Positions 4,034-52,783 of a stretch of 57,143 nucleotides of DNA are shown here, piece by piece; the first letter of the stretch is position 1, and the number at the start of each line of letters is the position of its first letter. The translations under genes and the position numbers were made by a program. The stretch is from a virus (taxonomy: Duplodnaviria > Caudoviricetes). The stretch is from IMG/VR virus record IMGVR_UViG_3300003886_000028, positions 1-57,143 of that record. One strand, given 5' to 3'. Under the pieces are notes generated by a model. That model was not told the origin of the DNA, made no database searches, and worked only from the letters and a program-made list of their open reading frames with translations.

Positions 4034-7000
4034 CTACTGGTCGTTGACTCGCTCGTTGTAGAGCCGGTTAAACTGATTCATCGTGTCCTTGATCTCGTCC
4101 CCAATATTGCTGATCTGGCGTTTCTTTTCTGCGTCTGACAGATCCGATTCGTCAATTCTATTACGCTCTTTGCGCTGTTTCATGAGGTAGCTATCGGATT
4201 TGCGACGTTCCCCAATCAGGGAATATTCGCCCCATCGAGCTTCCTTTAGTTCTAATTCAGCGTCGATGTTTTTGGTCTCGATGTAGTGTTTTGCTTCTTT
4301 TTCGGTGATACGGACCGCATCGGCATTACGGTAGTACTCCTGGTACAGCGTACCGAGGCCGGGCTGGCCATAGAGTTTACGAAGCAGCGGAATCTCGTAG
4401 GTCTCAATCTCATCGCCTTTGAGGGCCTTGATTGGCGTGGACACCGTGTCTGCGATGAATCGGCCCGCACCACCGGTGACGTTATCGATGATCAGGTCGA
4501 TCATTTCCGGGTTGATATCCACGGTGCCGCTGCGGAATTCATTACCGCCAGTCAATTCATTGAGTTTTTCGGCGACCCACCGCGACGGCTCGCGAACGCT
4601 ATTCCAGTATTGCTGTGATTCCGGGGCATCGACATCGAAAGGATTGCCCTCGGGGCGCAGCGGGCGTCCGGCCCAGTCTTTGTTCTCGCCCCACTGAACG
4701 ATTGGGTCCGTGATTGTGGGTGAAATGATTTGCCCCAGCGAGGCATCACCACCGATCGGATTGAAAGAACCGGCCACCGATGCGGCCACTCGAAGCGCGC
4801 CAGCGCTGGCCTTAAAGTTCTTTTTGGTCGCAGCCTCACCTGTGACCTGCCCCATGACGTGGAACACGTTGTAGCCCCAGGGCAGCGGTATCTTGACGTA
4901 ATCACCCTTGCCGCCTGGTAGCATGAAAATGAGGTTTCGCTCCTTTACGTGGTCCGGAATCTTGTCGTAGCGATTCTTGCCGTCCTCATCGTCTCCACCC
5001 ATTGCTCGATTCATGATGTCTAGGAATGTGGCGAAAACAATTGTGGCACCAATCAACACTCGTACCTTCGGGCTTTTAGCAGCGCCCACAATGATCCGGG
5101 CCGAGCCTTGAATGCTGGCGTTATAAAACAGCCACAGCGCGTTCATTATCTGCCCGTAATCGCCTTTGCGGTTGAAGTTGACGGTCAGTTCTTTGGCGAG
5201 CCTCGCCGACTTGCCCACGCTGATGCCTGCCCGACGCGCATGAACGAAGGCCGACAGCCGAACCGCATTCTCGACAGCCGTGTTCTCGTTCTCAATAAAC
5301 TCAAACAGGGCGCGCACCGATCGCTTCACCTTCAGCAGCGGCACGTCTCCTCGCAATTCTTCAACCCTATTGCGCAGCCGATCCTCTTTCTGGGAGATAT
5401 CGCCGTACAGGCCGAGCCATCCGGTTTGAGCGCCCGCTTTTCGGAACTCGTCAAATTCCTTGGCCCACGGATGATCTTTTTGGCTCTGAAACGCCCGAAT
5501 ACCACGCCACGCCTTACCGACGTCCTTGATGATGGTCCATTTCAGACTATCCACTTCCGTGGACGACAGGTTATATCCCGCGGTCTGTATGTCGCGGAGA
5601 AAGTTTGAAATTATGAATTCGGGGTTGTAGCCGGTGTTGATTGCGGCCAGATACCGCATGACCCGCGTCAACACGTTTATGATCGGTCCGGAGTTGTTGG
5701 CGCCCAGACTCTTCATTGCATGGGCAATGCGCATAGCCTCGTGGCTGCGCTGGTTAAACGTGACCGTGTGATCTTTGCCGGCAACCTTGACGACCAGTAC
5801 GTTATCGGCGAACTGGAACCCGCGGTGCGGTTTGTAAACCACCAATCCCTCGGCATCAAAGGTTGCTTTGAATTCGACCTTATCGACCGCGTACAACTCC
5901 TCGTTGGGATTGTTCTGGGCAAACCTCAGCATAGCCTGTGCCACTTTATTCTTCTCGGCCCGGATCAGGGTTGCCTCATGCTGGGCAGTGAGGTGCGACA
6001 GAATGCTGACTACCTCACGCTTAGAGCCTGCGCGGCGCTTTTGACGGCCCGTGACAGAGAATCCCTTGCCACGCTGTGGCGGGGTGTCTCCGAAGCCCTC
6101 ACGTTGCAATGGCACATAAAATTCGTAGGTCGATTCCCACTTTGCCACGGTTTTGGCCGTTTCCAGGCCAGATTCCACCAGCAGCTTGCGCTGGCTCGCA
6201 GTAATAGCATCGGTTAGTGCGGCAATCTCCTCAAGTTTTTGCAGATCACCCGACGCTTCGAAGTCGGCGATAATCGTGGATGCCGCCTCATTGGTCATGC
6301 CGCTCAGTCCATCGTTATCCTTTAGCCCGCGCGATTTATCGCCATCTTCACCAATATTGAGGTCTTTTTGCGGATCGATGGGATTGATGCGTTTGAGTTG
6401 GGCATTGGCTTCTGGGGCATGGCGGGCATGCAGATACGATTCGACATCCTCAATGTCGAGGCCTGATTCGCTGATTTTCTCCACCAACGGGTCAACGTGA
6501 TCGCGCTGAAAGTCCTCGATCGCCGCGCCAGCCATACCGTGGTATCGCAGTTCTGACAGATAAGCGTCTTCGGGTTCGGCAAGCTCTTCGAGTCCCCTCT
6601 CTTTTGCCGCCGTCTTCTGGGCCTTGTACAGATAATTGAATTTGTCCTGGAAGCGGAATATTGCCTCGGACAGGAACAGATTTGATTGTCGGTCTGGGGT
6701 TGGCTCAGGGGCCGTCTCCACAGACTTGCGTGGGCGATTCGGATTAAAGTCGCCGGGTTGAAGTGCTAGGCGACCTTCGGGAGAATTATCTTCTCTATAC
6801 TTGACAAGGTCTTTCCGAGTCAATACCTTGTCCCTGTAGCCCTTGACCTCCTGCAGCCCAGGCAATCGCAGCCCGGAACGTCCAGATAGGTCAAGGGTTT
6901 TTCTTTGGTCAATATATCGTAACAGTCCGTCCTCCACCCACCGTTTTAGAGGTGATTTTCGACCATCTTCGTACACGCTAACAATTAAGGTGGTACCACC

Positions 7001-10000
7001 GTTTGGTCGAGGCGCAGCAATTATACGAACAAGAGACTCGCCGACTGGGTCGGGTGCTATAAAAACTAACCGCCCAGGTTGAGTCTCAGATTCAAATACC
7101 AAGGTAGGGTTCTCCAGCCAGTTTGGTACTTTTTTCCAGTCTTCCGCAGTCAACCGATGATTAAACCTGCTGGCCGATACCTTACTCTCCACAAGGAAAA
7201 CGGGACCATCATCAATCCCGTGCATTGCCAAAACATCGCTGCGATCAAGTATTCGAACTCCAGTTGGGTCGGGTTTTTCCCCGGCAAATAGTTCATCAAT
7301 TCTGGACTCATAGATGCGGCGTGTATCGGCCAGTAAAGTTAACCTTTGACGCTTCTCATTAGCCGCCACTCCATCCCTCCGCCCCACCTCACCTCGATCG
7401 ATGCGCCGGAAGATATCGCCCGCACTCTGGAATCCAGCGCCGCGCAGCGCATTGCCGAGGGCTTCCAGAAATTCGCTAATTCTCTGGAAGGCGGTTTTCA
7501 GGAAACCCCTGGCTTGTTTCTGGCTCGTCGACCAGTCGGCGTGCAAGTCCGCGATCGCCTCTTCAACCAGCTGTTGCTCGGTGAGGTTGCGGCCGCTGTA
7601 CCGCTGGCGCACGCTATCCATGCGATCCTCCGCGGCACGCGCCAGCGCGGTCCATTCCGCGGTCCGGATCACCCCGATGTCTCGCAGGGCGTGAATAACC
7701 TCATGATCCATGACCCATGCCTTGTTCGGGGCATCAGCAGCCACCTCGATCAGGCGACCCAGATAACGGCCCTGTGCGCCAGACATGGCTGAACCAGCAC
7801 TGTTGCGAATCTCGTCAACCAGTTTGACCGCGACACGATCCGTGATACCCACCTTATCGAGCCGGGCCTTGAGGTCGGACTCAATCGCATCCGCTTTGCC
7901 GGCGACACCTGGCTGAAGCGTGAACAGCGGTAGCCCGAGGAGGGCTTGTTCGCGCATCGCGGGGGTGATTTGAATGGAGTGTACATCGATGCTTTCACGG
8001 CCAGCATCAACCCTGCGCTCGATGTATTGAGTAGCCTCAACATGGCTTTCAAACGGCCCTTGACGGGGCGTGTTCAGGCTTTCTACCCACCAGTTGTTAC
8101 CATCTTTAACGACTTCATATATTGCGCCCTCGCCAATACCAATAGATTCCACCTTAACGGCTCTATCCAGCTTTTTGGTGACTTTGCTGAACAGGTTTCG
8201 CAGCGTGCGATCGTAGAACCCCTTCATACCTTCGCCGCCAACCCTGAGGTCGAGGCCTGAGAGTCGCCGCCATGTCTTTTCGTCCGCTCGCGGAGACGGA
8301 GCGCCCTCACCGTTAATTATTTTCTCGGCAACATCCTTACCAACGATGTCTTCAAGTTCTTCGGGCTTTACGGCCTTACGATCAAAGACAATGTTGCCAC
8401 CGCGGTCTCTGGCGATAACAGCGTAGTTCGAGCCGTTTGGCTCAAAATCGATGTATTCCAGCCGTTTCGAGAGGTCGTATCGGTCTGCCTGCTGCTCCCC
8501 CGTGGTCCATGCCACCTGGTCGTAGCCACCCTCGGCCGCCATGCGAATCACCCGCTTGATTGCCAGTTCAACCCAAGCGTTGCCTTTGAATGGGGCGTCG
8601 GGGACCATTTCGTTCTTACCAATCCGAACATGGCGTGCGTCCGAATTCATCTCTTCCAGATAGGATAGTTGCTGAGCTGGACCCATGGCCGCCCAGTCCA
8701 CATCGGTAATGCCAAAGAACCTCTTGGCATCATCAGGTGTGAGTGGTTTATCAGATCGATATCCTTTGCGACGACCCGTTTGATGCCAGTCGCTCTGCAG
8801 TTCTTCGATGAATAGCACCTTCTCACCGTTCGGGCCGGAGCGATCGTTCAGGCGTACATGGGCGAGTACGTTGGCAGTATCGAAGTGGCCATCAATAAAA
8901 ACCCCGGCATCACGAGAGGCCAAGGGACTGCCAGGGGAGTTTGGATCAATATCCTCGCGCCGCGGCAATGTGAGTAGGACTTCGCGATAGTTCTCACCAC
9001 CTGGCAAAACGTGGTCTTGGTATTTGGTGGTTGTAAAATCGTCCGACATTTGTCGGCCAATCGCCTGTTTCAGACTTTTCGGTAAGTCGTCAAATTCAAT
9101 CTCATTGCCCTCTGGGTCCAGGTAGAGAGCCACTTCAGCATCGCTGTTGTCTAGTGTGTAACCTTCCCGGGCGAATATTTCCACCAATCCAGCGTTGCTG
9201 CTTTGCAACGTAACGTCTTCGACGCGCACCCCGTTGCCGGCGAGATATTCCACAATTTCGGCCTTGGTTACCGCACCTTCTTGGGTTGCGAGCCATTCCT
9301 CAATGCCGGTCCACTGAATTTCCTCGGCCTTCACACCGGGCTGCTTTTTCAGCATTGCCAGCATTTGATCGGGTTGGCCCTTCGCCTGTTTCAAGCCTTC
9401 CGCGGCGCGCGCCAGCGATGAGAAGTACCACGGCGCGTCGTCACGCAGCGAAAACATTTCAACGCCTGTGGCGGTCTCGCGGGACTCAATGGTCTCGAAC
9501 AAGTGATCGAAGGCAGCGCGGATCACCGGGATCTCAGCGGGCGTCGGGTAGGGATAGCCCGCCGCCTCTCCGGTGTTCTGGAATCCCATGCTCAGCGCGG
9601 CCTCGGCTTTCCAGTACTGCTCAGAGACGATATTCGCGAGGTAATCGTTCGAGGCGCCCTGGTCTTGCAGTTTGGCGATGATGTAGCTCTCAAACGCCCG
9701 GGCCGTCATTTCCCGGCCGGTTGACCAATACGCGTTGGTGCGGCGTTTATCAATCGACTCCGAGCGCTGTTTCAGGCTGGTCTGACTGATCGCCTGGACC
9801 ACGCCGTCAAAGGCTTCCACCACCTCGGGTCGGACGCCCTCACCGCGCTGTACCGCGTCTTCGCTGAGGAAACCATCGTTCTGCCCCCGGTTGCGGGAGA
9901 AGTAGTTGTCCATTGAGTGTAGCCACTCGTGCGCCAGCGAGCCCGATCCGGAGCGCTTGGTCAGATTGATGACCACCGTATCGGCTTCGAAGTGTGCTGC

Positions 10001-13000
10001 CGCCGCGCCAGCCCCACCGGTACCACGAGCTCCAAACGCCAAACCGAGGCGGCCATTCAGCGACAAGGCCTGAGCCGGCACGTCGAGCACGCCGGCGAGG
10101 TCCATCAATGCATCGTAGGCGCTATTCAGGTCCTGCTGGCGGCGCTTGCCCTCTACGTAGTTACCGAACTGGACTCCGCGGAAGCCGAAGGTCTCGGCGA
10201 ACACTGTTGGGGTGACGTCGGCGCCATCCCGATGATCCGAGCCAACCCGCGGCGCATTCTCGGGCCGTCGATCGGCAGGCAGTTCTTTCCAGCGCTTGAA
10301 GTCCGACACCAGTGCATCATGATTTTCATCGAGGTACTTGCGAGCCTCTTTGATGTTGTCGAACTCACGCAGATCGATCCGGTCCTTGCCCAGTTTCTTA
10401 CCGATGACAAATCGCCCCGCCTTCGGTCCGCGGCGATAGCTGTAAATGCTGAATTTGACCTGCTTCGAGGCCTTGGGCTGAGTATCGATGTTGTCGAACT
10501 CGGCCTTGAAATTCCCGATTGCGGCGTCTCGGGTATTACCCTTCGCCAACTCTATCGGCCAATTGCTGAAGGCAGTCGCCTTGGCGGCACGCGATACGGT
10601 CCAGATAACTTTGGGAGGATTGTACTTTTTGCCACCAAACAGGGAATATTTACCCTCTCTGAGCCGGATACCCTTCAACGATTTGCTGTGTCCCACGGCT
10701 TGATAAAGGTCAATGCTGGCATCGAGTTCGGTACGCAGGGTCAGAAACTCGGCGTTGTTTCTCAGCTTGGCAGTAATTGTGTCTTGCGTCAGCGTGCCAT
10801 CCAACACTTGACGCGCCATTTCCCGCAGCACTTTGGTTTGTTCAACCCAGCGCTTTGCCTTCCACGCCTTTCTAGGCTTGTTGGGAACCGTGTCTCGTGC
10901 GGTGCGGATGAATGCTACAGACCACGGATCCGCGCCGGCCTCCAGCATTGTCTCGTAGTTCGGAGCCGGCCAGGATTTCGAGAGCGGGACGACCGCAACA
11001 TCCAGTTCAGCGGCTTTGGTGAGATTGTCCTGATAAGCCGCCCAGACGTGTTTGCGGGCGCCGGTCAGCACTTCCCCGAAGTCTTCGATATCTGCCGACG
11101 GCTTGGGTGTCTTCTTTGGCGCATCCGTGAGGTCCGTTTGCTGGCGGGCCTGGCTGAACAGATCATCCGGCTTGCCGGTCTCGATCGAGTCCTGTCCGGT
11201 ATTTCGGCCCGTATCGCGCTTACGCTTCTCGTCAGCGAGCGCCTGCGCCGCCACAGTGTCATCCCCGAGCAGGTCGGGCTGAGTGGCTGGTGGTGTTGAT
11301 GTGGCGGTCTCAGGGGCGCTCTGCGCCGTGAGGGTTAACTCTTCACTGGGTTCTGCAGGCGTTTCAGCACTCGCTTGGCTGCCCGCTGCAGCTTTCTGAC
11401 TCGCGGCAACGAGGTCACGGACCCCGGCGATGAATCCGGCGTCGTCGTCTTCGAATCGTGTGGCGAGTCTTTCGACCGCATCTTCGTCAATCTCCGTCGC
11501 CGTGGCGACCAGTGCTACGTCATCCGCATTTTGAGGTGTTTCGTCGAGATCCTCAAACGCGAGTTCTTCGGGCGTCGGGAAGGCTTTGGTAAGTGTGTTT
11601 CTCTCCTGGGCGACCTCAACCAGAAAATTGAAATATTCTCGCGGCTTCGTGCCGAGGTACTTACCCGCCAGTCCTTTGTCGATTATACGCTCGGTTTGAG
11701 CCTCATTGTAGTTCCCGGGACGTCCTTTCCACCAATCCGCTTTTGGCACCCATGGCGTGCGGCCAGTGACCTCACCATCCTGATCCATCAACACGCGGCC
11801 GCCAATCTCTGCCCATCCCGATTCGCCCTTCATTATTTCCAGGGAATCGCGCACCTCACTGGATATCTCACCAGCCGGCACCGGGCTTGACAAATCTGCG
11901 GTTGCTTGACTTTCCACGGCTTGCGCACTTTCAGCCAGTCCACCCTCGGCACTCGGAAACTCGGGGACTTCTTTGAGCAGCTGTGCGATCGGCGCGTCGA
12001 GCCGGATCACACGGATATCTTTGCCGGCCTCCACAGCCGCCAGCCATTGGTGGTGCCCGTCGAGAACATTGCCCTCCCTGGAGACCAGTATGGCGCGATC
12101 CCCGCCCTCGAAGGCCATGGCCTTTCGGACCTTCTTTTCGGAGAATTCGGCTTGCGTCGGTTTCAGTGATATCGCGGGCACAGTCTCCTCAACACCTGCG
12201 ATGTCGCGGGCCTTCAGGAAATTGGCCAGAGCACCGCGATGCTCGGCTTTGATTTGCGGCATTTCGGTACGGGGCACATTCAGGGAGCCGCTGGTCTCGG
12301 CAAAACTGACCCATTCATCGTCGATGCGTTCACCGCGCAAAGCATTGGCAGCACCGGATTCAGCAGTTTCAGGTGTTAATGCACCGCCGGGGTCGGCGGC
12401 TGTGTCTGCACCAGGTACACCATCCGCATCGCTTTTGTCAGTCGGGGCGGTAATGGTTCGCAGTTGCTGCTCCACCGGCTCAATGCTCGCGCCTCGTTCC
12501 GGGTCACTAGCCGGTGCTGTCGCGCCAGGTTCAGTGCCTCGTCGAACGTCATTACGAAGTTGTGGTAGCTGATCAAGGCCTGTCTCCTCTGGAGCGATGG
12601 CAGCGACCGGTGTTAGTCCTTCAACATCGAGAGCGGGCTGGGTCAGTATTTCATCCCGTGGTGGCTCAATAGGCCTCGCCGGCGTTTGGGTTGTGTCTGG
12701 CGTTTCTTCACGACCGGGCGCGGTTGGTTCGATGGTAACGGCTTCAATACCTTGGGCTTCATCGGTTTGTGGCGCATCTTTTACCTCGATTGGGGCGATT
12801 CTACCCCGTAGTGTGTCAAACGGTTCCGCAACGGTGCGGCCATCGTCGTATTGCAGTTTCGCCCCGATAACCCCGTCTTGCTCATAGGCGTCGATCACGG
12901 TGGCGGGTTCTCCGGATACCGTGATTTGAGTCCCGATTTCGGGAAATCCTGCCCGCACAAGCATTTCTGTCGCGGCCTGCTGGCCCAACGCGTCTTGCAG

Positions 13001-14320
13001 TACTGCTCTGCCGGAACTGATCAATTCGTTGGGTATCGGGCTGTCCAGGTCTTCCTGTGAGAGCGGGTCCACCTCGGTGCGCGCCCGCTCACGTTCACCG
13101 ATTGGCTGTAGCGCGATGCCATAGGCATCCGCAATGGCCGCTGGCGCGCTTCGGTTATCACGTAGAAAGTCACGTTCCGCGGTTTCTGCCTCAGTCGGCG
13201 CCTCGATGGCCTCGAGGGTCTGAAGCCGCTCATCGGCTAATTGGGCGACCTCTTCGATGGGTTTTGGGGCGCTATCGGTGTCGGGTGTTGTATCCGGCGC
13301 TGTACCGCCTGCGCCGCGCCGCCGACCTGGCAATGCCAGCGTAAACAGTGTTTCCAATATGGCACCAGTGGTGAAGCCCACGGCGCCTTCTTCAACCCTT
13401 TCCGTGGTCCACACTCCGCGCTCCGGGTCGTACAGCTTTTGGGCAACCGCGGCATTCATAATGCCGGCGAACGATTCCTGGACCGCCTCTTCAGTGCCTT
13501 GTCGAACCGCACGTGCCAAGTAGCGTTTGATTACCCCTCCGCCTACCTTATCAAGCCGGTTAAGCAGGTTACCTACCGGAATGGCTTCGGTGGTGCCAAT
13601 GATGGCGCCCAGTTTTGAGGCTTCCAGCGCGGTCGCAATATCAGCACCCGAATCTATGGCTTGTTCAAATTGGTCAACACTATTAAGCGATGACCCCAAT
13701 ACTGCCGGCGCACCATAGGTCGCCAGGGCGGATGTGCCCACTACACCTCGGGTAACTAGCGCGGCGGAAACAAACCCCAGTGCCGAACCCAATCCCTGCG
13801 GCACTTTTGAGGTCCAAAACTCATCCTGCAACGCGGGATCGACGGGAAACTTGTCGGCGATGAACTTATCGATTGCGTTGCCGGCTTTGTATAGCGCTGA
13901 TTTTTGGGCCTTTTCCGCCTGTTCTGTCCACTGCGTGCGAACTTGCTGGCGCTGTTCGGGACTGGCCGAGGTATAGCCCTCATAAAATGACGTCAACGGG
14001 TCGGCCAATTCAATGACGCCAGCTGAGCCGGCGTATTGCGTTTTTGGCCGATAGGGTTCACCCCTATCGATGCGATCAAGGTTCCGCCACACCGACGGCT
14101 CTGGAGTGGTGGCCAATGCCAAAGACTTTGGGATCCCGGATACCACGCTGCTGAACCCACGAACCAGCGAACTCGATGCGGTACGCGCGCGGCCTGGCGG
14201 CACCTCAGCACCGCTAATAGGCGTTAAACCGGTGGTGTCGAGTTCCGTCAGCCCACCCGTATCCAGGCTGTTAAGCCCGGTGGTGTCGAGTGGTTTTAGG
14301 CCGGTAAGGTCTAGTGACAT
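4034..14320 (-). CDS. giant polyvalent internal virion/injected protein (ParB-like, LPD5, LPD1, MPTase-like, MuF-C-like, LPD38)
   Basis: 3428 aa; LKPTQ..LDGHHQW (ParB-like), IEDFGEVLTGARK (LPD5), AHEWLH..REMTARAFE (LPD1), HEVIH, ELTVNFNRKG (LPD38); last of the ejection genes. Confidence 0.85.
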   Translation of the reverse strand: MSLDLTGLKPLDTTGLNSLDTGGLTELDTTGLTPISGAEVPPGRARTASSSLVRGFSSVVSGIPKSLALATTPEPSVWRNLDRIDRGEPYRPKTQYAGSAGVIELADPLTSFYEGYTSASPEQRQQVRTQWTEQAEKAQKSALYKAGNAIDKFIADKFPVDPALQDEFWTSKVPQGLGSALGFVSAALVTRGVVGTSALATYGAPAVLGSSLNSVDQFEQAIDSGADIATALEASKLGAIIGTTEAIPVGNLLNRLDKVGGGVIKRYLARAVRQGTEEAVQESFAGIMNAAVAQKLYDPERGVWTTERVEEGAVGFTTGAILETLFTLALPGRRRGAGGTAPDTTPDTDSAPKPIEEVAQLADERLQTLEAIEAPTEAETAERDFLRDNRSAPAAIADAYGIALQPIGERERARTEVDPLSQEDLDSPIPNELISSGRAVLQDALGQQAATEMLVRAGFPEIGTQITVSGEPATVIDAYEQDGVIGAKLQYDDGRTVAEPFDTLRGRIAPIEVKDAPQTDEAQGIEAVTIEPTAPGREETPDTTQTPARPIEPPRDEILTQPALDVEGLTPVAAIAPEETGLDQLPQLRNDVRRGTEPGATAPASDPERGASIEPVEQQLRTITAPTDKSDADGVPGADTAADPGGALTPETAESGAANALRGERIDDEWVSFAETSGSLNVPRTEMPQIKAEHRGALANFLKARDIAGVEETVPAISLKPTQAEFSEKKVRKAMAFEGGDRAILVSREGNVLDGHHQWLAAVEAGKDIRVIRLDAPIAQLLKEVPEFPSAEGGLAESAQAVESQATADLSSPVPAGEISSEVRDSLEIMKGESGWAEIGGRVLMDQDGEVTGRTPWVPKADWWKGRPGNYNEAQTERIIDKGLAGKYLGTKPREYFNFLVEVAQERNTLTKAFPTPEELAFEDLDETPQNADDVALVATATEIDEDAVERLATRFEDDDAGFIAGVRDLVAASQKAAAGSQASAETPAEPSEELTLTAQSAPETATSTPPATQPDLLGDDTVAAQALADEKRKRDTGRNTGQDSIETGKPDDLFSQARQQTDLTDAPKKTPKPSADIEDFGEVLTGARKHVWAAYQDNLTKAAELDVAVVPLSKSWPAPNYETMLEAGADPWSVAFIRTARDTVPNKPRKAWKAKRWVEQTKVLREMARQVLDGTLTQDTITAKLRNNAEFLTLRTELDASIDLYQAVGHSKSLKGIRLREGKYSLFGGKKYNPPKVIWTVSRAAKATAFSNWPIELAKGNTRDAAIGNFKAEFDNIDTQPKASKQVKFSIYSYRRGPKAGRFVIGKKLGKDRIDLREFDNIKEARKYLDENHDALVSDFKRWKELPADRRPENAPRVGSDHRDGADVTPTVFAETFGFRGVQFGNYVEGKRRQQDLNSAYDALMDLAGVLDVPAQALSLNGRLGLAFGARGTGGAGAAAAHFEADTVVINLTKRSGSGSLAHEWLHSMDNYFSRNRGQNDGFLSEDAVQRGEGVRPEVVEAFDGVVQAISQTSLKQRSESIDKRRTNAYWSTGREMTARAFESYIIAKLQDQGASNDYLANIVSEQYWKAEAALSMGFQNTGEAAGYPYPTPAEIPVIRAAFDHLFETIESRETATGVEMFSLRDDAPWYFSSLARAAEGLKQAKGQPDQMLAMLKKQPGVKAEEIQWTGIEEWLATQEGAVTKAEIVEYLAGNGVRVEDVTLQSSNAGLVEIFAREGYTLDNSDAEVALYLDPEGNEIEFDDLPKSLKQAIGRQMSDDFTTTKYQDHVLPGGENYREVLLTLPRREDIDPNSPGSPLASRDAGVFIDGHFDTANVLAHVRLNDRSGPNGEKVLFIEELQSDWHQTGRRKGYRSDKPLTPDDAKRFFGITDVDWAAMGPAQQLSYLEEMNSDARHVRIGKNEMVPDAPFKGNAWVELAIKRVIRMAAEGGYDQVAWTTGEQQADRYDLSKRLEYIDFEPNGSNYAVIARDRGGNIVFDRKAVKPEELEDIVGKDVAEKIINGEGAPSPRADEKTWRRLSGLDLRVGGEGMKGFYDRTLRNLFSKVTKKLDRAVKVESIGIGEGAIYEVVKDGNNWWVESLNTPRQGPFESHVEATQYIERRVDAGRESIDVHSIQITPAMREQALLGLPLFTLQPGVAGKADAIESDLKARLDKVGITDRVAVKLVDEIRNSAGSAMSGAQGRYLGRLIEVAADAPNKAWVMDHEVIHALRDIGVIRTAEWTALARAAEDRMDSVRQRYSGRNLTEQQLVEEAIADLHADWSTSQKQARGFLKTAFQRISEFLEALGNALRGAGFQSAGDIFRRIDRGEVGRRDGVAANEKRQRLTLLADTRRIYESRIDELFAGEKPDPTGVRILDRSDVLAMHGIDDGPVFLVESKVSASRFNHRLTAEDWKKVPNWLENPTLVFESETQPGRLVFIAPDPVGESLVRIIAAPRPNGGTTLIVSVYEDGRKSPLKRWVEDGLLRYIDQRKTLDLSGRSGLRLPGLQEVKGYRDKVLTRKDLVKYREDNSPEGRLALQPGDFNPNRPRKSVETAPEPTPDRQSNLFLSEAIFRFQDKFNYLYKAQKTAAKERGLEELAEPEDAYLSELRYHGMAGAAIEDFQRDHVDPLVEKISESGLDIEDVESYLHARHAPEANAQLKRINPIDPQKDLNIGEDGDKSRGLKDNDGLSGMTNEAASTIIADFEASGDLQKLEEIAALTDAITASQRKLLVESGLETAKTVAKWESTYEFYVPLQREGFGDTPPQRGKGFSVTGRQKRRAGSKREVVSILSHLTAQHEATLIRAEKNKVAQAMLRFAQNNPNEELYAVDKVEFKATFDAEGLVVYKPHRGFQFADNVLVVKVAGKDHTVTFNQRSHEAMRIAHAMKSLGANNSGPIINVLTRVMRYLAAINTGYNPEFIISNFLRDIQTAGYNLSSTEVDSLKWTIIKDVGKAWRGIRAFQSQKDHPWAKEFDEFRKAGAQTGWLGLYGDISQKEDRLRNRVEELRGDVPLLKVKRSVRALFEFIENENTAVENAVRLSAFVHARRAGISVGKSARLAKELTVNFNRKGDYGQIMNALWLFYNASIQGSARIIVGAAKSPKVRVLIGATIVFATFLDIMNRAMGGDDEDGKNRYDKIPDHVKERNLIFMLPGGKGDYVKIPLPWGYNVFHVMGQVTGEAATKKNFKASAGALRVAASVAGSFNPIGGDASLGQIISPTITDPIVQWGENKDWAGRPLRPEGNPFDVDAPESQQYWNSVREPSRWVAEKLNELTGGNEFRSGTVDINPEMIDLIIDNVTGGAGRFIADTVSTPIKALKGDEIETYEIPLLRKLYGQPGLGTLYQEYYRNADAVRITEKEAKHYIETKNIDAELELKEARWGEYSLIGERRKSDSYLMKQRKERNRIDESDLSDAEKKRQISNIGDEIKDTMNQFNRLYNERVNDQ

Positions 14321-42006: not shown

Positions 42007-42543
42007 TTACTCTACCTCTGCGCTCTGCAGCGCCTGAATTTTTTTGAAGCCCTGGGCGACCTGTTCCCGGACCGTATTGGGCGATCGCCCCAACTGCTCC
42101 GCAATCTCGCCGCAACTGTAGCCGTAGACTTTCCTCAACACGAAGGCATGGCGCATTTTCTCGGGGAGATGCGTAATGGCGGCACATAGGTTCTCGAACT
42201 GCTGTTCCGCCATGACCTGGCGCTCCACGGACGGCGTATCGTGATCTGCAGCAATTTCGTTGGTCTCGATCGAGACGTCGACCAGAACAATTTTATTCTT
42301 TCGGTACGCGTCGTAGACAAGATTGCGCATCGTGACAAACAGAAACCCCAACGGCTCGCGGATTTCATTACCCTTTCGAAGGTGGTCGTGCGCCTTGAGA
42401 AAGGTTTCCTGAACCAGGTCGTCCGCTTCGGCACCGATGCCCACCTGGTTTCTGGCAAACCGGGTCAAGCGATCGCAGTGATCCCTGTACAGCATTGCCG
42501 CTGCTTCGTTGCTATGCGGGAGATTGAGGGCGCACTCACTCAT
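42007..42543 (-). CDS. ECF-type RNA polymerase sigma-70 factor
   Basis: region 2 ADDLVQETFLK, region 4 LPEKMR.AFVLR..GYS..EIAEQLG.S.NTV. Confidence 0.9.
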   Translation of the reverse strand: MSECALNLPHSNEAAAMLYRDHCDRLTRFARNQVGIGAEADDLVQETFLKAHDHLRKGNEIREPLGFLFVTMRNLVYDAYRKNKIVLVDVSIETNEIAADHDTPSVERQVMAEQQFENLCAAITHLPEKMRHAFVLRKVYGYSCGEIAEQLGRSPNTVREQVAQGFKKIQALQSAEVE

Positions 42544-44402
42544 TTTCTAATCTCCATGCCCGCAATTCTCTCTCCAATCCACCGCATACACGGCACAGCC
42601 ATGCTGTTCCCAAGAGACTTGTAAACCGCTGAGTCGCTGCTTATGGGTCGATTGGAACTTTTCGACGCATCCTCTGAATGTGCATATCGCAAAGGCCATG
42701 TCCTTTGTGCTTGCGGCCACAATTTGGAACATCGCAAAAACGCTCTTGCCGGTGACGCTTCAAGTGGCAACTCCGACAAAGTGTTTCTAAGTTCTCCGGC
42801 AAGTTGTTCATAGGATTTTCGTCGATATGGTGAACGTCCAGCCTTTCGTGCTTCCCGCAGTCTTTGCAGGAATCCTGCAGACCATCTTTTCTTGCCCACA
42901 TGCGAGATGTTCTGACGCTTTGCGTACTGCTCTGCCTGCGCCCACTGAAGCCATCCGACATGCACTCCTGCGAGCAAAATTTCCGGCGTGAGAAGTGCAA
43001 CAAAGATTCGACGTTTTTCACGTAGCTTATCTTTCCCGTTTTCTTCGATACTCGTCGCTTTTGGATAAGTTTCTTTCTTTCCAGCCTCTCGCCACAATTC
43101 ATGCAGTATTTGAGCGGAGTGGGCTTCATCGGCATTGCCATAAGTTAATTCCAAATAGTCGTCAGGAAATTGCTGTAAACGAGAGCACTCTGTCGGGGTA
43201 AGTCGTCTGATAGCTAAATCCTGATGGATATAGGTTTGCTGCTTCGCCCCTGGTTCTGCCGACAGAGTTCCGGACTGGTCCATCAATCGAACCTCGTCAC
43301 GTTGGTTCTGTGCAAAGGCAACTACGTTTTCTTGCCCGTGGTTTTGGCCCAACGCAAACGCCTGATCCGATGTGCAGGGATCTTGCGTACCATGGACAAC
43401 GCACAGGTTCTCATCGTCCTCTTTTCGGCGACCCGGTGCATTAACGCCTGGCCGTGATGATCCTGCCGTCAGTGGCGCAGCGACGTCCGGCGATCCGCGT
43501 ATAACAATCGGAGTCTGGCATTCATCGGCAGTAGTATTGATGCCCTTGTGCATTCTGGCTGTCAGTGGATTGGCAACCTCTGGAACTAAAAGCGCCTCTC
43601 TGGATGCGTTGTCTCCGTATGGGTTTCCTGTTAGTGATGGGGCTATTGGAATTAAACAATCTTGTCCTCGCCCGTCACCGACTCTATCAAATCCCGGGCC
43701 ACTTGCTTTAAGGTACGGTGCAACATCGTAGGTATCTCTTTCCCTCGTTTCCCCGCTCGGCGGAGAATTCCTAAGCAGGCTTTCGGGGTCAAATAATACC
43801 GCTGCGGCACGACGCCAGTCTCCAAGATATCCGACAACGAACACGCGACGGCGCCGCTGGGGAACTCCGAAGTATTGAGCGTTAAGAGTTCGGTAGGCGA
43901 ACCCATACCCGAGTTTTTGAAGTCCGGCCAGGAAGCATCCGAACGCATGGCTTTCTTCTGCTTCGTAAGAGTCGAAGATAGTTTGCCCGTCTCTGGTTCC
44001 CACTCGTAGTTGGTCTGTCGATCGACGTGGATCGGGAGCGTCGTGAGAAGTTGACGACAAGACTCCGGGGACGTTCTCCCATACCAGCCAGTTGGGGCGG
44101 TAGCGGTTAGTGATTGCAAGATAGACGAGTGCGAGGTTTCCGTTAGGGTCAGCCAGTCCCTTCCTAAGTCCGGCGATACTGAATGAAGTACACGGTGTTC
44201 CTCCGACGAGAACATCGAAGTCTGTGTCGGGCCATTGTTTGAAGTCATTCATGTCCCCATAATTTGGTACATCCGGATAATGGTGTTGCAAGACCGCGTT
44301 GGGGAATTTCTCAATCTCAGAGAACCCAACCGCTTGCCAGCCAAGCGGTTGCCAGGCTACTGTTGCCGCTTCAATTCCTGAGCATACCGATAGATATTTC
44401 AT
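42540..44402 (-). CDS. C5 cytosine DNA methyltransferase with large insertions
   Basis: CSGIE (I), GTPC (IV), ENV (VI), QRRRR (VIII), RRLTP.EC.RLQ.FP (IX), LGNS (X). Confidence 0.9.
   Translation of the reverse strand: MKYLSVCSGIEAATVAWQPLGWQAVGFSEIEKFPNAVLQHHYPDVPNYGDMNDFKQWPDTDFDVLVGGTPCTSFSIAGLRKGLADPNGNLALVYLAITNRYRPNWLVWENVPGVLSSTSHDAPDPRRSTDQLRVGTRDGQTIFDSYEAEESHAFGCFLAGLQKLGYGFAYRTLNAQYFGVPQRRRRVFVVGYLGDWRRAAAVLFDPESLLRNSPPSGETRERDTYDVAPYLKASGPGFDRVGDGRGQDCLIPIAPSLTGNPYGDNASREALLVPEVANPLTARMHKGINTTADECQTPIVIRGSPDVAAPLTAGSSRPGVNAPGRRKEDDENLCVVHGTQDPCTSDQAFALGQNHGQENVVAFAQNQRDEVRLMDQSGTLSAEPGAKQQTYIHQDLAIRRLTPTECSRLQQFPDDYLELTYGNADEAHSAQILHELWREAGKKETYPKATSIEENGKDKLREKRRIFVALLTPEILLAGVHVGWLQWAQAEQYAKRQNISHVGKKRWSAGFLQRLREARKAGRSPYRRKSYEQLAGELRNTLSELPLEASPARAFLRCSKLWPQAQRTWPLRYAHSEDASKSSNRPISSDSAVYKSLGNSMAVPCMRWIGERIAGMEIRK
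42641..43141 (-). CDS. HNH endonuclease nested in another frame of the MTase
   Basis: CxxC, FCSQEC, VHHIDENPMNN..NL..LCRSCH; GGA upstream of ATG. Confidence 0.85.
   Translation of the reverse strand: MAMPMKPTPLKYCMNCGERLERKKLIQKRRVSKKTGKISYVKNVESLLHFSRRKFCSQECMSDGFSGRRQSSTQSVRTSRMWARKDGLQDSCKDCGKHERLDVHHIDENPMNNLPENLETLCRSCHLKRHRQERFCDVPNCGRKHKGHGLCDMHIQRMRRKVPIDP
43652..44248 (-). CDS. alternative-frame polypeptide resembling the M.EcoHK31I beta subunit
   Basis: SLSDILE..P.RYYL.PKAC.GILRRA..RGK motif; GGGGAC RBS-like sequence upstream. Confidence 0.7.
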   Translation of the reverse strand: MTSNNGPTQTSMFSSEEHRVLHSVSPDLGRDWLTLTETSHSSILQSLTATAPTGWYGRTSPESCRQLLTTLPIHVDRQTNYEWEPETGKLSSTLTKQKKAMRSDASWPDFKNSGMGSPTELLTLNTSEFPSGAVACSLSDILETGVVPQRYYLTPKACLGILRRAGKRGKEIPTMLHRTLKQVARDLIESVTGEDKIV

Positions 44403-44407
44403 TGCGG

Positions 44408-45169
44408 TTACTTTCTCAGACACCCCTTCCACGCCGCCGCGGTGCGTCGCTGGGCCTCATCGCACTGGTTGCGCCCATCGTTGGCCAGGGTCAGTTCGTG
44501 GGTCAATGTCTGGTTTTCGTTGGACAGGGCCTTTACCGCGCTGCGAAGACCGTCCAGTTCTGCCTGGTCTCGTAACAGGTTAACAAGGTGGGTTCGGCAG
44601 GCCTGCGTCTTGTTCTTGGCGCCCCTCATGTTGCCGCCGAAGCGGGTTTGCATGGATTTGGTGCCGCAGCGAGCCTCGATCGCCGCCAGCCGCATACCCA
44701 TTTCCGCCAGCCAGTTCGCATCAGCATCCGCTTCACAATCGCGAATCTTTCGAGACAACCAGCGGGGTACCGGCAATCCCAGCGAGCCGGAACCGTTCAG
44801 ATTGGTGTATCCGAAGCCAATAACCTCGCCACATTTTATGTTAGAGAACGCCGGCGGGGCGTAGCTGGTGTTGCTGGGGAAGTCGTAGGTCACGGTATCG
44901 CCATCGACCCTCACCGTTGTATCGCCCGCATCTACGACCACAGCGACATCGCTGGAGGCGTCCACGTCGGTCTGGTTTTCGGCAACCGAAGATGACTCTG
45001 CCGCGGCGCGGGCGTTAGAGGCGCTCTCACTGCTGCTAGTGGCGTCGCCGCCGCGGGCTATTTGGTCCTGGTGTTGTTCTTGCCGGGACTGCTCAGGTGG
45101 CTTTGGCTTTCCCGCATGGGCTGTAAAGCTCAGGCTCAGGGTTATTATTCCGATGATTGTTGCTTGCAT
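44408..45169 (-). CDS. secreted Cys-containing coiled-coil protein
   Basis: signal peptide ending AHA; C-terminal heptads. Confidence 0.65.
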   Translation of the reverse strand: MQATIIGIITLSLSFTAHAGKPKPPEQSRQEQHQDQIARGGDATSSSESASNARAAAESSSVAENQTDVDASSDVAVVVDAGDTTVRVDGDTVTYDFPSNTSYAPPAFSNIKCGEVIGFGYTNLNGSGSLGLPVPRWLSRKIRDCEADADANWLAEMGMRLAAIEARCGTKSMQTRFGGNMRGAKNKTQACRTHLVNLLRDQAELDGLRSAVKALSNENQTLTHELTLANDGRNQCDEAQRRTAAAWKGCLRK

Positions 45170-51457: not shown

Positions 51458-51569
51458 TCAAGGATCGATTTTGAGTAGGAAACGCTCCTCCACCTTCACC
51501 TTCAGGTCGGCCTTATTGGTTATCGCGTAGATACCAATGCCATAGTCGCGGCAAACCCGCCAGTTTCAT
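51458..51569 (-). pseudogene. possible GIY-YIG endonuclease remnant
   Basis: GIYAITNKADLKV then KVEERFLLKIDP*, out of frame with its ATG. Confidence 0.35.
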
Positions 51570-52783
51570 TCTTCGGCGTAGAAACAGCGGAGGCAAATGA
51601 ATTCCTGATTGTGGATCGCCGCAGTTGTCGCAATGCTGACCGCCTCTTTGCAATCCCTACAGAGCGGATCAATGTCTGCGATGCGTTTTTTCACCAACGT
51701 ATCCTGGACCGGCTCGCACACCGGCAATACGTCAAACCGTAATTGTTGCTGGCGCAGACGGTCACGCTGAAACTCCAGGTACTCTGGGTTTAGATCAATC
51801 CCGAGCCATTTTCGCCCTAACTGCTCCGCGACCTGGGCGACAGTACCGGACCCCATAAAGGGATCAAACACGACGTCGCCAGGCCTTGAGCCGGCGAGAA
51901 TGCAAGGTTCAACCAGCTTTCTGGGAAATGTGGCGAAATGGGCTTCGGAATACGGCTCGCTTGCGATAGTCCAGACAGTACGTTTGTTACGACTCTCTAC
52001 AAGCCCAGATACTGCGGCTGAAAACGATTCGTTTTGTTTGTTGCGCCCGCCCGCGCCACGACCAAACTTAGTGGAATCCCGCAGACCCTGTTCGGCGCGG
52101 CCCGTATCTTTTGGGCCACGATTCGCATGCTTCAGCGTTGAGTGAGCGCCTTTGCCCACATCCCAACCACTGACCGCCTTCGGGTTTACCCCATCGCCAC
52201 GAGAATGCGCCCCGCCTGTCACCGGTTCCTTGATGGCATCCGCGTCGTAGTAGTACCGCGGTGACTTGGTTAGCAAGAACAGATGCTCATGCGCTTTGGT
52301 GCAGCGATCGGTCACGGATTCTGGCATCGGCGCCGGCTTGTTCCAGATGATTTCCTGCCGCAGATACCAGCCGTCGGCCCGCAACAGCAGCGCCAGCATC
52401 CACGGCATGCCGACCATGTCCTTTTGCTTTAATCCGGAACGCCGCTTCTGGCGACCCGCGCGCTGGCGCGTAGATTTTGGTAGGTATGCGTGCTTTCCTC
52501 CAGTTTTCCCGCCAGACTTGCCATCGGTCGCATAGCTATCCCCCATGTTGAGCCACAGCACGCCGTCATCCGCCAGCAACTCTCTGACCAGTCGTAAGAC
52601 ACCCCGCATCCTAGTCAGGTAGCGTATTGGCGTGCGCTCCAAACCTATCTGCCCGGGAACGCCGTAATCTCGTAGTCCCCAATAGGGAGGCGAGGTGACG
52701 ACACACTGGACCTTAACGCCGGCCGCAATCATTTCACGCATCACGGTCCGGCAATCGCCTATATGGCAGGTACCCGTGGTCAC
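51566..52783 (-). CDS. N4/N6 DNA methyltransferase, beta class
   Basis: TSPPYW near N-terminus; HFATFP, DPFMGSGT near C-terminus. Confidence 0.92.
   Translation of the reverse strand: MTTGTCHIGDCRTVMREMIAAGVKVQCVVTSPPYWGLRDYGVPGQIGLERTPIRYLTRMRGVLRLVRELLADDGVLWLNMGDSYATDGKSGGKTGGKHAYLPKSTRQRAGRQKRRSGLKQKDMVGMPWMLALLLRADGWYLRQEIIWNKPAPMPESVTDRCTKAHEHLFLLTKSPRYYYDADAIKEPVTGGAHSRGDGVNPKAVSGWDVGKGAHSTLKHANRGPKDTGRAEQGLRDSTKFGRGAGGRNKQNESFSAAVSGLVESRNKRTVWTIASEPYSEAHFATFPRKLVEPCILAGSRPGDVVFDPFMGSGTVAQVAEQLGRKWLGIDLNPEYLEFQRDRLRQQQLRFDVLPVCEPVQDTLVKKRIADIDPLCRDCKEAVSIATTAAIHNQEFICLRCFYAEE

Follow-up and report, generated by a model that had tools for sequence, protein, structure and literature searches.

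A putative homing-type HNH endonuclease gene nested in a second reading frame of a phage C5 cytosine DNA methyltransferase

Introduction

To our knowledge, homing endonucleases have been thought to persist inside genes only by means of self-splicing introns, inteins or gene splitting. The HNH homing endonuclease I-HmuI, for example, is encoded by a group I intron that occupies a conserved position in a phage gene, and in Aeromonas phage Aeh1 the free-standing homing endonuclease gene mobE splits nrdA into two open reading frames (ORFs) whose products reassemble. Here we describe IMG/VR virus record IMGVR_UViG_3300003886_000028 (57,143 nucleotides; this whole stretch is called the window), in which an insertion between motifs IX and X of a C5 cytosine DNA methyltransferase gene holds a complete HNH endonuclease ORF in another frame, and the methyltransferase frame runs through the insertion without a stop. 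The nuclease resembles the I-HmuI type in being an HNH homing-type enzyme at a conserved site of a phage gene, but no ribozyme core is present, the ORF leaves fewer than 20 nucleotides (nt) of the insert uncovered, and the host frame is open. As with mobE, a homing-type endonuclease gene lies within a coding region without intron or intein; unlike the split nrdA, however, the present host ORF is continuous.

A further way for such genes to persist, in which the nuclease is hidden in another frame of a retained insert, was proposed in 2025 as a fourth one, based on a handful of mycobacteriophages. In the sections of that report used here (Arsenault, Gosselin & Gogarten 2025, Genes 16:178, PMC11855218; earlier account in Gosselin et al. 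2023, PMC9957025), the “ShiLan domain” of the gp65 DNA methylase of mycobacteriophage ShiLan is a 202-amino-acid (aa) insertion with an open host frame that hides a 195-aa HNH protein in the third frame. The HNH ORF starts with GTG 18 nt into the insertion, ends with TAA in its last four nucleotides and lacks a ribosome-binding site (RBS). The same sections describe no intron or intein features, a low-confidence loop- or hairpin-like structure for the host-frame product, and a disjunct distribution. Section 3.6 adds a second case, a hidden HNH-like ORF in the Pacc40 gp60 methylase that is related to free-standing HNH genes adjoining methylases of other phages. Inteins with out-of-frame or antisense homing endonucleases are described, in the portion consulted, in a preprint (bioRxiv 10.1101/2025.01.02.630785) that cites Gorbalenya 1998 and Gogarten 2002. 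Literature searches for homing endonuclease overprinting retrieved no paper, and those for out-of-frame HNH insertions in methylases retrieved only the 2025 paper, whose survey list may include relatives of the present element, and the intein preprint.

Compared with these descriptions, as far as they are drawn on here, the present insert shares with the ShiLan domain the absence of a host-frame stop, a complete zinc-finger-flanked HNH ORF in another frame that fills nearly all of the insertion, an HNH stop within the last few nucleotides, the lack of any intron or intein signature, and a patchy occurrence among related methylases. In both cases, homologous host genes also bear inteins (here P0042, P0089 and P0133). 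In contrast to the third-frame, GTG-initiated, 195-aa ShiLan HNH without an RBS, the present HNH lies in the +1 frame, starts with ATG about 13 nt into the insert, measures 149 to 166 aa and is preceded by a Shine-Dalgarno core in 24 of 37 elements. Moreover, the host-frame product is predicted by AlphaFold2 (AF2) as a confident helical domain, whereas that of ShiLan is of low confidence, and element and host are about equally diverged, whereas the ShiLan elements are much less diverged than their hosts. The Pacc40 gp60 case is similar in carrying an out-of-frame nuclease ORF within an insertion with an open host frame; because its insertion sits at a different position in a divergent methylase, the strategy recurs. 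The out-of-frame-nuclease inteins likewise have a nuclease gene overprinted on an insertion with an open host frame, but they retain Hint splicing domains and leave the protein. The present insert has no Hint domain, no Cys or Ser start and no His-Asn end, and must therefore stay in the protein.

The HNH lineage is not detectably the same as that of ShiLan, as judged from a tblastn search of phage records and not from ShiLan's own sequence: the window HNH protein matched 3 of 50,697 phage records, none of them a mycobacteriophage, with the presence of ShiLan among these records unconfirmed. This kind of element was thus already published in 2025, and the present family is a new, broader member that differs in its frame offset, its start signal and, apparently, its HNH lineage.

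Results

The insertion and its nested ORF

The features on which the analysis rests are as follows.

42540..44402, minus strand: C5 cytosine DNA methyltransferase gene, read continuously across the insert (PF00145, E 1.8e-42)
43155..43208, minus strand: motif IX (RRLTPTECSRLQQFPDDY), left flank of the insertion site, from sequence comparison
42642..43154, minus strand: insert of about 171 codons, delimited by comparison with insert-less P0002, P0012 and P0021 and 60 insert-less viral loci, and by a codon map
42641..43141, minus strand: HNH endonuclease ORF of 166 aa with a TAA stop, +1 relative to the methyltransferase frame (PF01844, E 1.7e-6; phrog_1271, E 1.1e-14)
42752..42868, minus strand: HNH catalytic core (CKDCG...DVHHIDENPMNN...NLETLCRSCHLKRH), HNH residues 92-130 (Pfam match over residues 92-132)
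42594..42623, minus strand: motif X (YKSLGNSMAV), right flank of the insertion site, from sequence comparison

The initial annotation, made from the sequence alone, had reported an insert of about 0.5 kb between motifs IX and X, a complete 166-aa HNH ORF with its own start and stop, and a methyltransferase frame free of stops throughout. All three observations hold. Motifs IX and X are 195 residues apart in the window, compared with 29 to 36 in insert-less homologues, and comparison with insert-less alleles, the check proposed for the boundaries, placed them to within a few codons. In the methyltransferase frame the insert reads LELTYGNADEAH...SSNRPI, has a length that is a multiple of three, and stands in place of a loop of about 5 to 10 residues (TDIPG or TDIQPKGKAT) of the insert-less alleles.

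The HNH ORF nearly fills the insertion. Its ATG lies about 13 nt into the insert, overlapping the host codons TAT-GGC, and its TAA lies within the last codons, overlapping ATA-AGC, so that about 13 nt of the insert precede the ORF and a few follow it. The match to PF01844 (His-Me finger) covers model positions 1 to 47 of 47, which places the protein in the HNH family. It is composed of an N-terminal CxxC zinc ribbon, the HNH core (DVHHIDENPMNN...CRSCH...H in the window) and a C-terminal CGRKHKGHGLCDMH zinc module. Residues C92, C95, D102, H104, H105, N109, N113, N117, C122, C125, H126 and H130 are invariant in the HNH alignment (A3), and a sequence search of the PDB with the HNH profile gave no match at E <= 0.01.

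Related elements share one frame relation at two or more sites

Relatives of the methyltransferase were taken as the best 120 homologues, with inserts called by a motif script plus inspection by eye. An insert of the same size is found at the same place in 31 of these (26 by the script and 5 by eye), and it aligns in the methyltransferase frame across the carriers. A scan of viral contigs with the host-frame alignment gave 15 loci, every one with a continuous methyltransferase frame and a complete +1-frame HNH ORF, and a longer-protein search with the host-frame insert gave 35 proteins, 33 of them with PF00145. Searching viral contigs with the single HNH protein found no relative; the relatives came from the alignment-based searches. 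Among the 39 loci retrieved with the HNH alignment and not already examined, the host frame spans the HNH ORF in 35. The four misses are the rearranged L039 and three different, free-standing HNH_3-like ORFs (L048, L049 and L070) that have only the C-terminal CGRxHKGxGLCDMH module in common with the nested HNH. When species-representative genomes were scanned by a pattern-limited method based on the host-frame alignment, 84 stretches matched, none of which was confirmed, and no copy in a cell or prophage came to light.

More distant HNH relatives (33-44% identity) occupy other places in C5 methyltransferases. One group of cassettes (L034, L036, L065, L037, L038, L040, L047, L066, L067 and Staphylococcus phage CUB-EPI_14 gp45) is found where the variable region ends, upstream of motif IX. 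The cassettes of a second group (L041-L046 and L069) belong to a low-GC methyltransferase subfamily, in which they lie between motifs IX and X, and their HNH proteins have no C-terminal zinc module. In both placements the HNH is always +1 to the host and the host frame is always open. The family thus uses two or more insertion sites with a single frame relation.

Three cultured phages carry the element, namely, Staphylococcus phage CUB-EPI_14 and Komagataeibacter phages phiKX1 and phiKX2. In CUB-EPI_14 (L071 1342-3147), gp45 is annotated as a DNA-cytosine methyltransferase only, the nested HNH having been missed, and the annotation of phiKX1 (L072 1363-3019) breaks the 548-aa methyltransferase ORF into fragments labeled hypothetical and omits the 172-aa HNH. 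Three homologous methyltransferases (P0042, P0089 and P0133) have both a hidden-HNH insert and an intein (PF14528 LAGLIDADG_3, PF13403 Hint_2), as is also reported for ShiLan gp65.

Several loci depart from the common form. At L039:77-628 the HNH ORF runs on into bS18 (rpsR)-like sequence and the methyltransferase frame stops early, so that this is probably a chimeric or rearranged metagenome contig. At L067:2974-3324 the HNH is cut to 117 aa with loss of the C-terminal zinc module, and the methyltransferase frame is open and still encodes the corresponding peptide. L067 looks like a decaying nuclease inside a retained insert, as would fit the decay phase of a selfish element. The zinc module itself (CGRxHKGxGLCDMHLQR) forms the N terminus of free-standing HNH_3-like ORFs in high-GC contigs (L048:2935-3621 and L070:2914-3678). 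Since a module that is C-terminal in the nested HNH recurs N-terminally in these ORFs, module shuffling among phage HNH genes is suggested. Close relatives of the present HNH were not found as free-standing genes, this zinc module being the only part in common with the L048 and L070 ORFs, which differs from the situation in Pacc40.

The methyltransferase frame is open beyond chance

The expected number of stops was obtained by shuffling synonymous codons within the HNH ORF, with protein and codon usage kept. The host frame of the window insert contains no stop, against 9.2 predicted, and each of 5000 shuffles had at least one; the third frame contains 7 stops. The search for stop depletion across homologues that the initial annotation had recommended gave the same picture. 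No host-frame stop is present in 33 of 35 distinct elements (window included, most found via the HNH protein), for which the shuffles predict 2.7 to 11.0 stops each and 244.6 in sum, and the third frame has 1 to 12 stops. Each of the two exceptions, L039 and phiKX1, has a single stop; that of phiKX1 is the methyltransferase's own terminator, beyond which the HNH ORF extends for 10 nt. The HNH is full-length in all of the 35 elements except L067. The open methyltransferase frame across the insert is not due to chance.

Selection acts on the HNH frame and on single host-frame residues

Selection was assessed on 21 distinct elements of the IX-X family (210 pairs). Read in the HNH frame, they have a ratio of nonsynonymous to synonymous differences (pN/pS) of 0.42; read in the methyltransferase frame, the ratio is 0.93. 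In an OLGenie-like analysis, dNN/dSN for the HNH frame is 0.42 (0.35-0.51) and dNN/dNS for the host frame is 0.83 (0.72-0.99), with intervals from a column bootstrap that ignores relatedness. Nucleotide divergence in an earlier set of 12 elements was 0.285, 0.26 and 0.40 at the first, second and third HNH codon positions. The HNH value equals the 0.43 found for the methyltransferase catalytic domain in the same genomes, and the codon comparisons make a clear case that the HNH frame is under purifying selection.

The signal in the host frame is concentrated at a few sites. The Cys codons of the HNH are mostly TGC; of the 168 for which T is permitted, only 32 end in T. At two Cys-Gly sites, however, where TGT-GGN yields a host-frame Trp, 41 of the 42 codons are TGT (Fisher p 2e-22); at a third Cys-Gly position T occurs in only 3 of 21. 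One HNH Arg is encoded by CGC in 21 of 21 elements despite four possible third bases, giving an invariant host-frame Pro. Several codons for His, Asn, Asp and Pro likewise do not vary at positions that give Leu, Tyr, Phe or Pro in the host frame. This pattern shows codon-level selection on a few host-frame residues, at which the constraint is clear. The proposed dN/dS comparison of both frames therefore gives a divided answer, strong for the HNH, and for the host frame weak overall yet strong at a few positions.

The host-frame insert is predicted to fold as a helical domain

AF2 was run on the whole protein (68-sequence alignment) and on the insert alone (20 sequences). In the whole-protein model the methyltransferase core is confident, the variable region (residues 219-365) is disordered with a predicted local distance difference test (pLDDT) score below 50, and the insert forms 8 to 9 helices with pLDDT mostly between 80 and 95. 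Alone, the insert reaches a mean pLDDT of 79.9 and a predicted template modeling (pTM) score of 0.74. The host-frame insert is thus predicted to form a helical domain in a surface loop between motifs IX and X. It matched no Pfam and no PHROG family, Pfam on the whole protein giving PF00145 only, and fold searches with the insert model found no clear structural relative (best Foldseek E 1.6; best VIA Z 5.3, to generic helical bundles). The lack of a clear fold match does not establish a new fold.

The insert lacks signatures of splicing, intein excision and bypass

Besides overprinting, the initial annotation had considered that the insert might be removed by ribosomal bypass or an unusual splice. 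It had also noted that Cys..His-Asn intein ends are missing and that there is little room for a group I core, and both of these remarks are borne out. The insert begins with Leu, has no His-Asn end and no Hint match in Pfam, and its predicted fold is all-helical and not Hint-like. Non-ORF sequence at the two ends of the insert together amounts to less than 20 nt, which leaves an intron core no room. Rfam found no intron family in window 42300-43500 at E <= 10, where it returned two chance-level matches outside the insert, in the methyltransferase variable region (RF04351, E 0.82; RF02507, E 2.7), and none at the gathering score in 19 related loci.

Bypass of the T4 gene 60 type involves matched take-off and landing codons, a stop right after the take-off codon and a 5′ stem-loop. 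In the present insert the host frame has no stop at the 5′ junction, about 500 nt would have to be skipped, and the features of the ends are not conserved. Two pairs of complementary blocks do exist at the ends, as had been noticed: UUGGAAUU/AGUUCCAA (8 bp with one G-U) and CUUAUGG/CCAUAAG. Their order, A1, A2 ... A1′, A2′, is crossing and not nested, so they cannot make one stem. A Watson-Crick run of 7 nt was also reached in 13 of 300 shuffles, and the longest pairing in 19 of 20 other elements is 4 to 6 nt, at chance level. The blocks are therefore real, but the significance attached to them is not upheld.

Removal of the insert before or during translation, by an unrecognized self-splicing RNA or a bypass like that of T4 gene 60, would make the open host frame incidental. 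These blocks speak for it, as does an 8-nt block at the analogous place in L005, a length reached in 3 of 300 shuffles. Neither the stop depletion in 33 of 35 elements nor the host-frame residues kept by otherwise disfavored synonymous codons would be selected if the insert were skipped. Together with the lack of an Rfam intron in the window or the 19 loci, the few nucleotides outside the ORF, the crossing pairings absent from 19 of 20 relatives and the missing stop after a take-off codon, this makes removal very improbable, and the suggestion of bypass or splicing is disfavored.

Internal initiation as the probable route to the HNH protein

One further feature bears on how the nuclease may be made.

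43146..43154, minus strand: LEL codons directly upstream of the HNH ATG (TTGGAATTA, containing GGAA, in the window; CTGGAGTTG in most relatives)

In the IX-X family, the host codons for Leu-Glu-Leu (CTGGAGTTG) form a GGAG Shine-Dalgarno core 7 nt before the HNH ATG. A core of at least 4 nt located 4 to 16 nt upstream of this ATG occurs in 24 of 37 elements, the window not among them. An HNH-frame stop lies 1 to 2 codons before the ATG in the window and most relatives. A +1 frameshift that would fuse the methyltransferase N terminus to the HNH was also considered; because of this stop it is unlikely, and internal initiation appears to be the simplest route.

The insert is patchily distributed on the methyltransferase tree

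A FastTree phylogeny was built for 112 methyltransferases with the insert columns removed (8 of the 120 were dropped because the motif pattern missed a motif). Accounting for the 31 carriers among the 112 takes 10 state changes, and branches with support >=95 force at least 7 of these; the mean for shuffled labels is 27.3. The window methyltransferase is the sole carrier in a clade of 27 rows with 99% support, and its nearest relatives (P0002, P0024 and P0012) are without the insert. In another subclade, 60 of 60 viral loci have the empty site FPDxYTDIQPKGKATPDGPRYKALGNS (3 of 63 loci were too short). The distribution of the insert is patchy and disjunct.

The host methyltransferase and its phage

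The window is from a virus record with an estimated completeness of 91%, and codes for a major head protein, a portal/adaptor, a tail fiber, an amidase and a second DNA methyltransferase; this gene content identifies a tailed phage. The methyltransferase ORF on the minus strand (42540..44432) has 630 aa counted from a GTG at 44432, and the true start is likely the ATG at 44402, giving 620 aa, in agreement with P0001 and homologues. Motifs I, IV (PC), VI (ENV), VIII (QxRxR), IX and X (GN) are present in order, as in the C5 class, and motif IV PC, VI ENV, VIII QRRRR and X GN are invariant in methyltransferase alignments A1 and A4. The AF2 model of the core matches M.HaeIII and M.HhaI (Foldseek E ~2e-10). 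Since pN/pS is 0.43 for the catalytic domain of 12 insert carriers, the insert-bearing methyltransferase looks functional.

It could be argued instead that the insert is a dead relic, its HNH ORF and open host frame persisting by chance or recent ancestry in an inactive methyltransferase. In the window, motif IV reads PCT where PCQ is usual, and the protein has a second small insertion modeled at low confidence. Such persistence is hard to reconcile with 35 elements that have diverged to 33-44% HNH identity and still retain 33 open host frames and 34 full-length HNH ORFs, with pN/pS values of about 0.42 to 0.43 in the HNH and the methyltransferase catalytic domain, and with the invariance of the catalytic residues of both proteins. 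We regard it as the least credible of the explanations considered.

The second in-frame insertion (about 33 aa, TSHDAPDPRR...EAEESHA; window 43953-44051, minus strand) separates motif VI from the next conserved block. P0003 is the only other member of alignment A1 to have it. AF2 models this insertion with pLDDT below 50, and it is too short for a gene. At its 3′ end the methyltransferase gene overlaps, as ATGA (42540-42543), the start of an extracytoplasmic function (ECF)-type sigma-70 factor gene (42007-42543, minus strand; PF04542 and PF08281), which suggests translational coupling. Elsewhere the phage carries a giant ORF of 3428 aa (4034-14320, minus strand) and the second DNA methyltransferase (51566-52783, minus strand; phrog_67, E 3.8e-69).

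Discussion

The insert is probably a homing-type HNH cassette in a phage C5 methyltransferase that is read through and dual-coded, without intron or intein. The stop depletion, the codon-level selection in the host frame and the patchy distribution on the methyltransferase tree support the proposal, already made in the initial annotation, of a homing element that spares its host gene by overprinting. Ribosomes on the methyltransferase mRNA would read through the insert, giving an enzyme with an extra predicted helical domain of about 170 residues in the IX-X surface loop, and separate initiation at the internal +1-frame ATG would give the 166-aa HNH enzyme. The latter would presumably cut insert-less methyltransferase alleles of co-infecting phages or prophages, and recombinational repair after the cut would copy the cassette in. 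Translation of both frames, the activity and target of the nuclease, homing, and the activity of the insert-bearing methyltransferase are all things that we infer from sequence comparison and modeling.

Several observations weigh against this reading of a read-through homing cassette. HNH identity (0.64) is about the same as that of the methyltransferase N-domain, or extein (0.65), with a correlation of r = 0.48 over 66 pairs. No near-identical element in divergent hosts is found among these pairs, so that recent homing is not supported, and part of the patchiness could come from loss. Amino acid constraint in the host frame is weak overall, the upper limit of dNN/dNS being 0.99 and pN/pS 0.93, and the confidence of the AF2 models may be inflated, the conservation in the alignment being inherited from the HNH frame. 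The HNH start in the window lacks a good Shine-Dalgarno core, GGAA being a weaker match. Furthermore, the 15 viral loci and the longer-protein search were obtained with the host-frame peptide and are biased toward open frames; the searches with the HNH alignment (33 metagenome loci and 21 viral loci) are free of that bias.

The equal divergence of element and host gene and their moderate correlation would point to long co-residence, as expected if the HNH is no longer, or never was, a homing enzyme but a domesticated partner of the methyltransferase, e.g., a nested restriction-like or nicking nuclease controlled by modification, with the helical insert as a functional domain. Selection in both frames and the predicted folding of the host-frame domain fit such a partner as well, and reuse as a DNA-binding module is also raised in section 4.2 of PMC11855218. 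However, the target-recognition regions of the carriers (VIII-IX) are unalignable and of variable length in alignment A1, whereas the HNH is conserved, which makes a cognate specificity pair unlikely; on the same grounds a nested restriction-modification pair was set aside as unlikely. Close relatives of the window methyltransferase are without the insert, and the tree needs at least 7 gains or losses. Related cassettes occupy different sites in different methyltransferase subfamilies, and the truncated HNH of L067 within an open host frame is as expected for the decay of a selfish element. Domestication therefore appears unlikely, and the read-through homing cassette remains the preferred reading.

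The hidden-HNH strategy is widespread, with 35 distinct elements in environmental phage contigs and further carriage by three cultured phages, and the codon comparisons provide the first quantitative evidence for selection on both frames of such an element. The family also reveals a systematic annotation gap, in that gene callers give one long methyltransferase and miss the nested nuclease. The host-frame insert probably exemplifies a protein domain that arose by overprinting. Taken together, the results raise a more far-reaching possibility, which we put forward tentatively and hold to be somewhat less than an even prospect: that the element is a self-contained, dual-coding mobile module in which the −1 reading of the HNH gene evolved by overprinting into an autonomously folding, selected helical domain of no known fold. 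The case for selection on this domain comes from the two Trp, one Pro and several Leu, Tyr and Phe positions held by disfavored synonymous codons. Such a built-in spacer domain would let the nuclease gene colonize different surface loops of C5 methyltransferases in phages of Proteobacteria, Firmicutes and many uncultured phages. If so, homing endonucleases would have, in addition to introns and inteins, a third general way of solving their host-gene problem, and one that is widespread well beyond actinophages.

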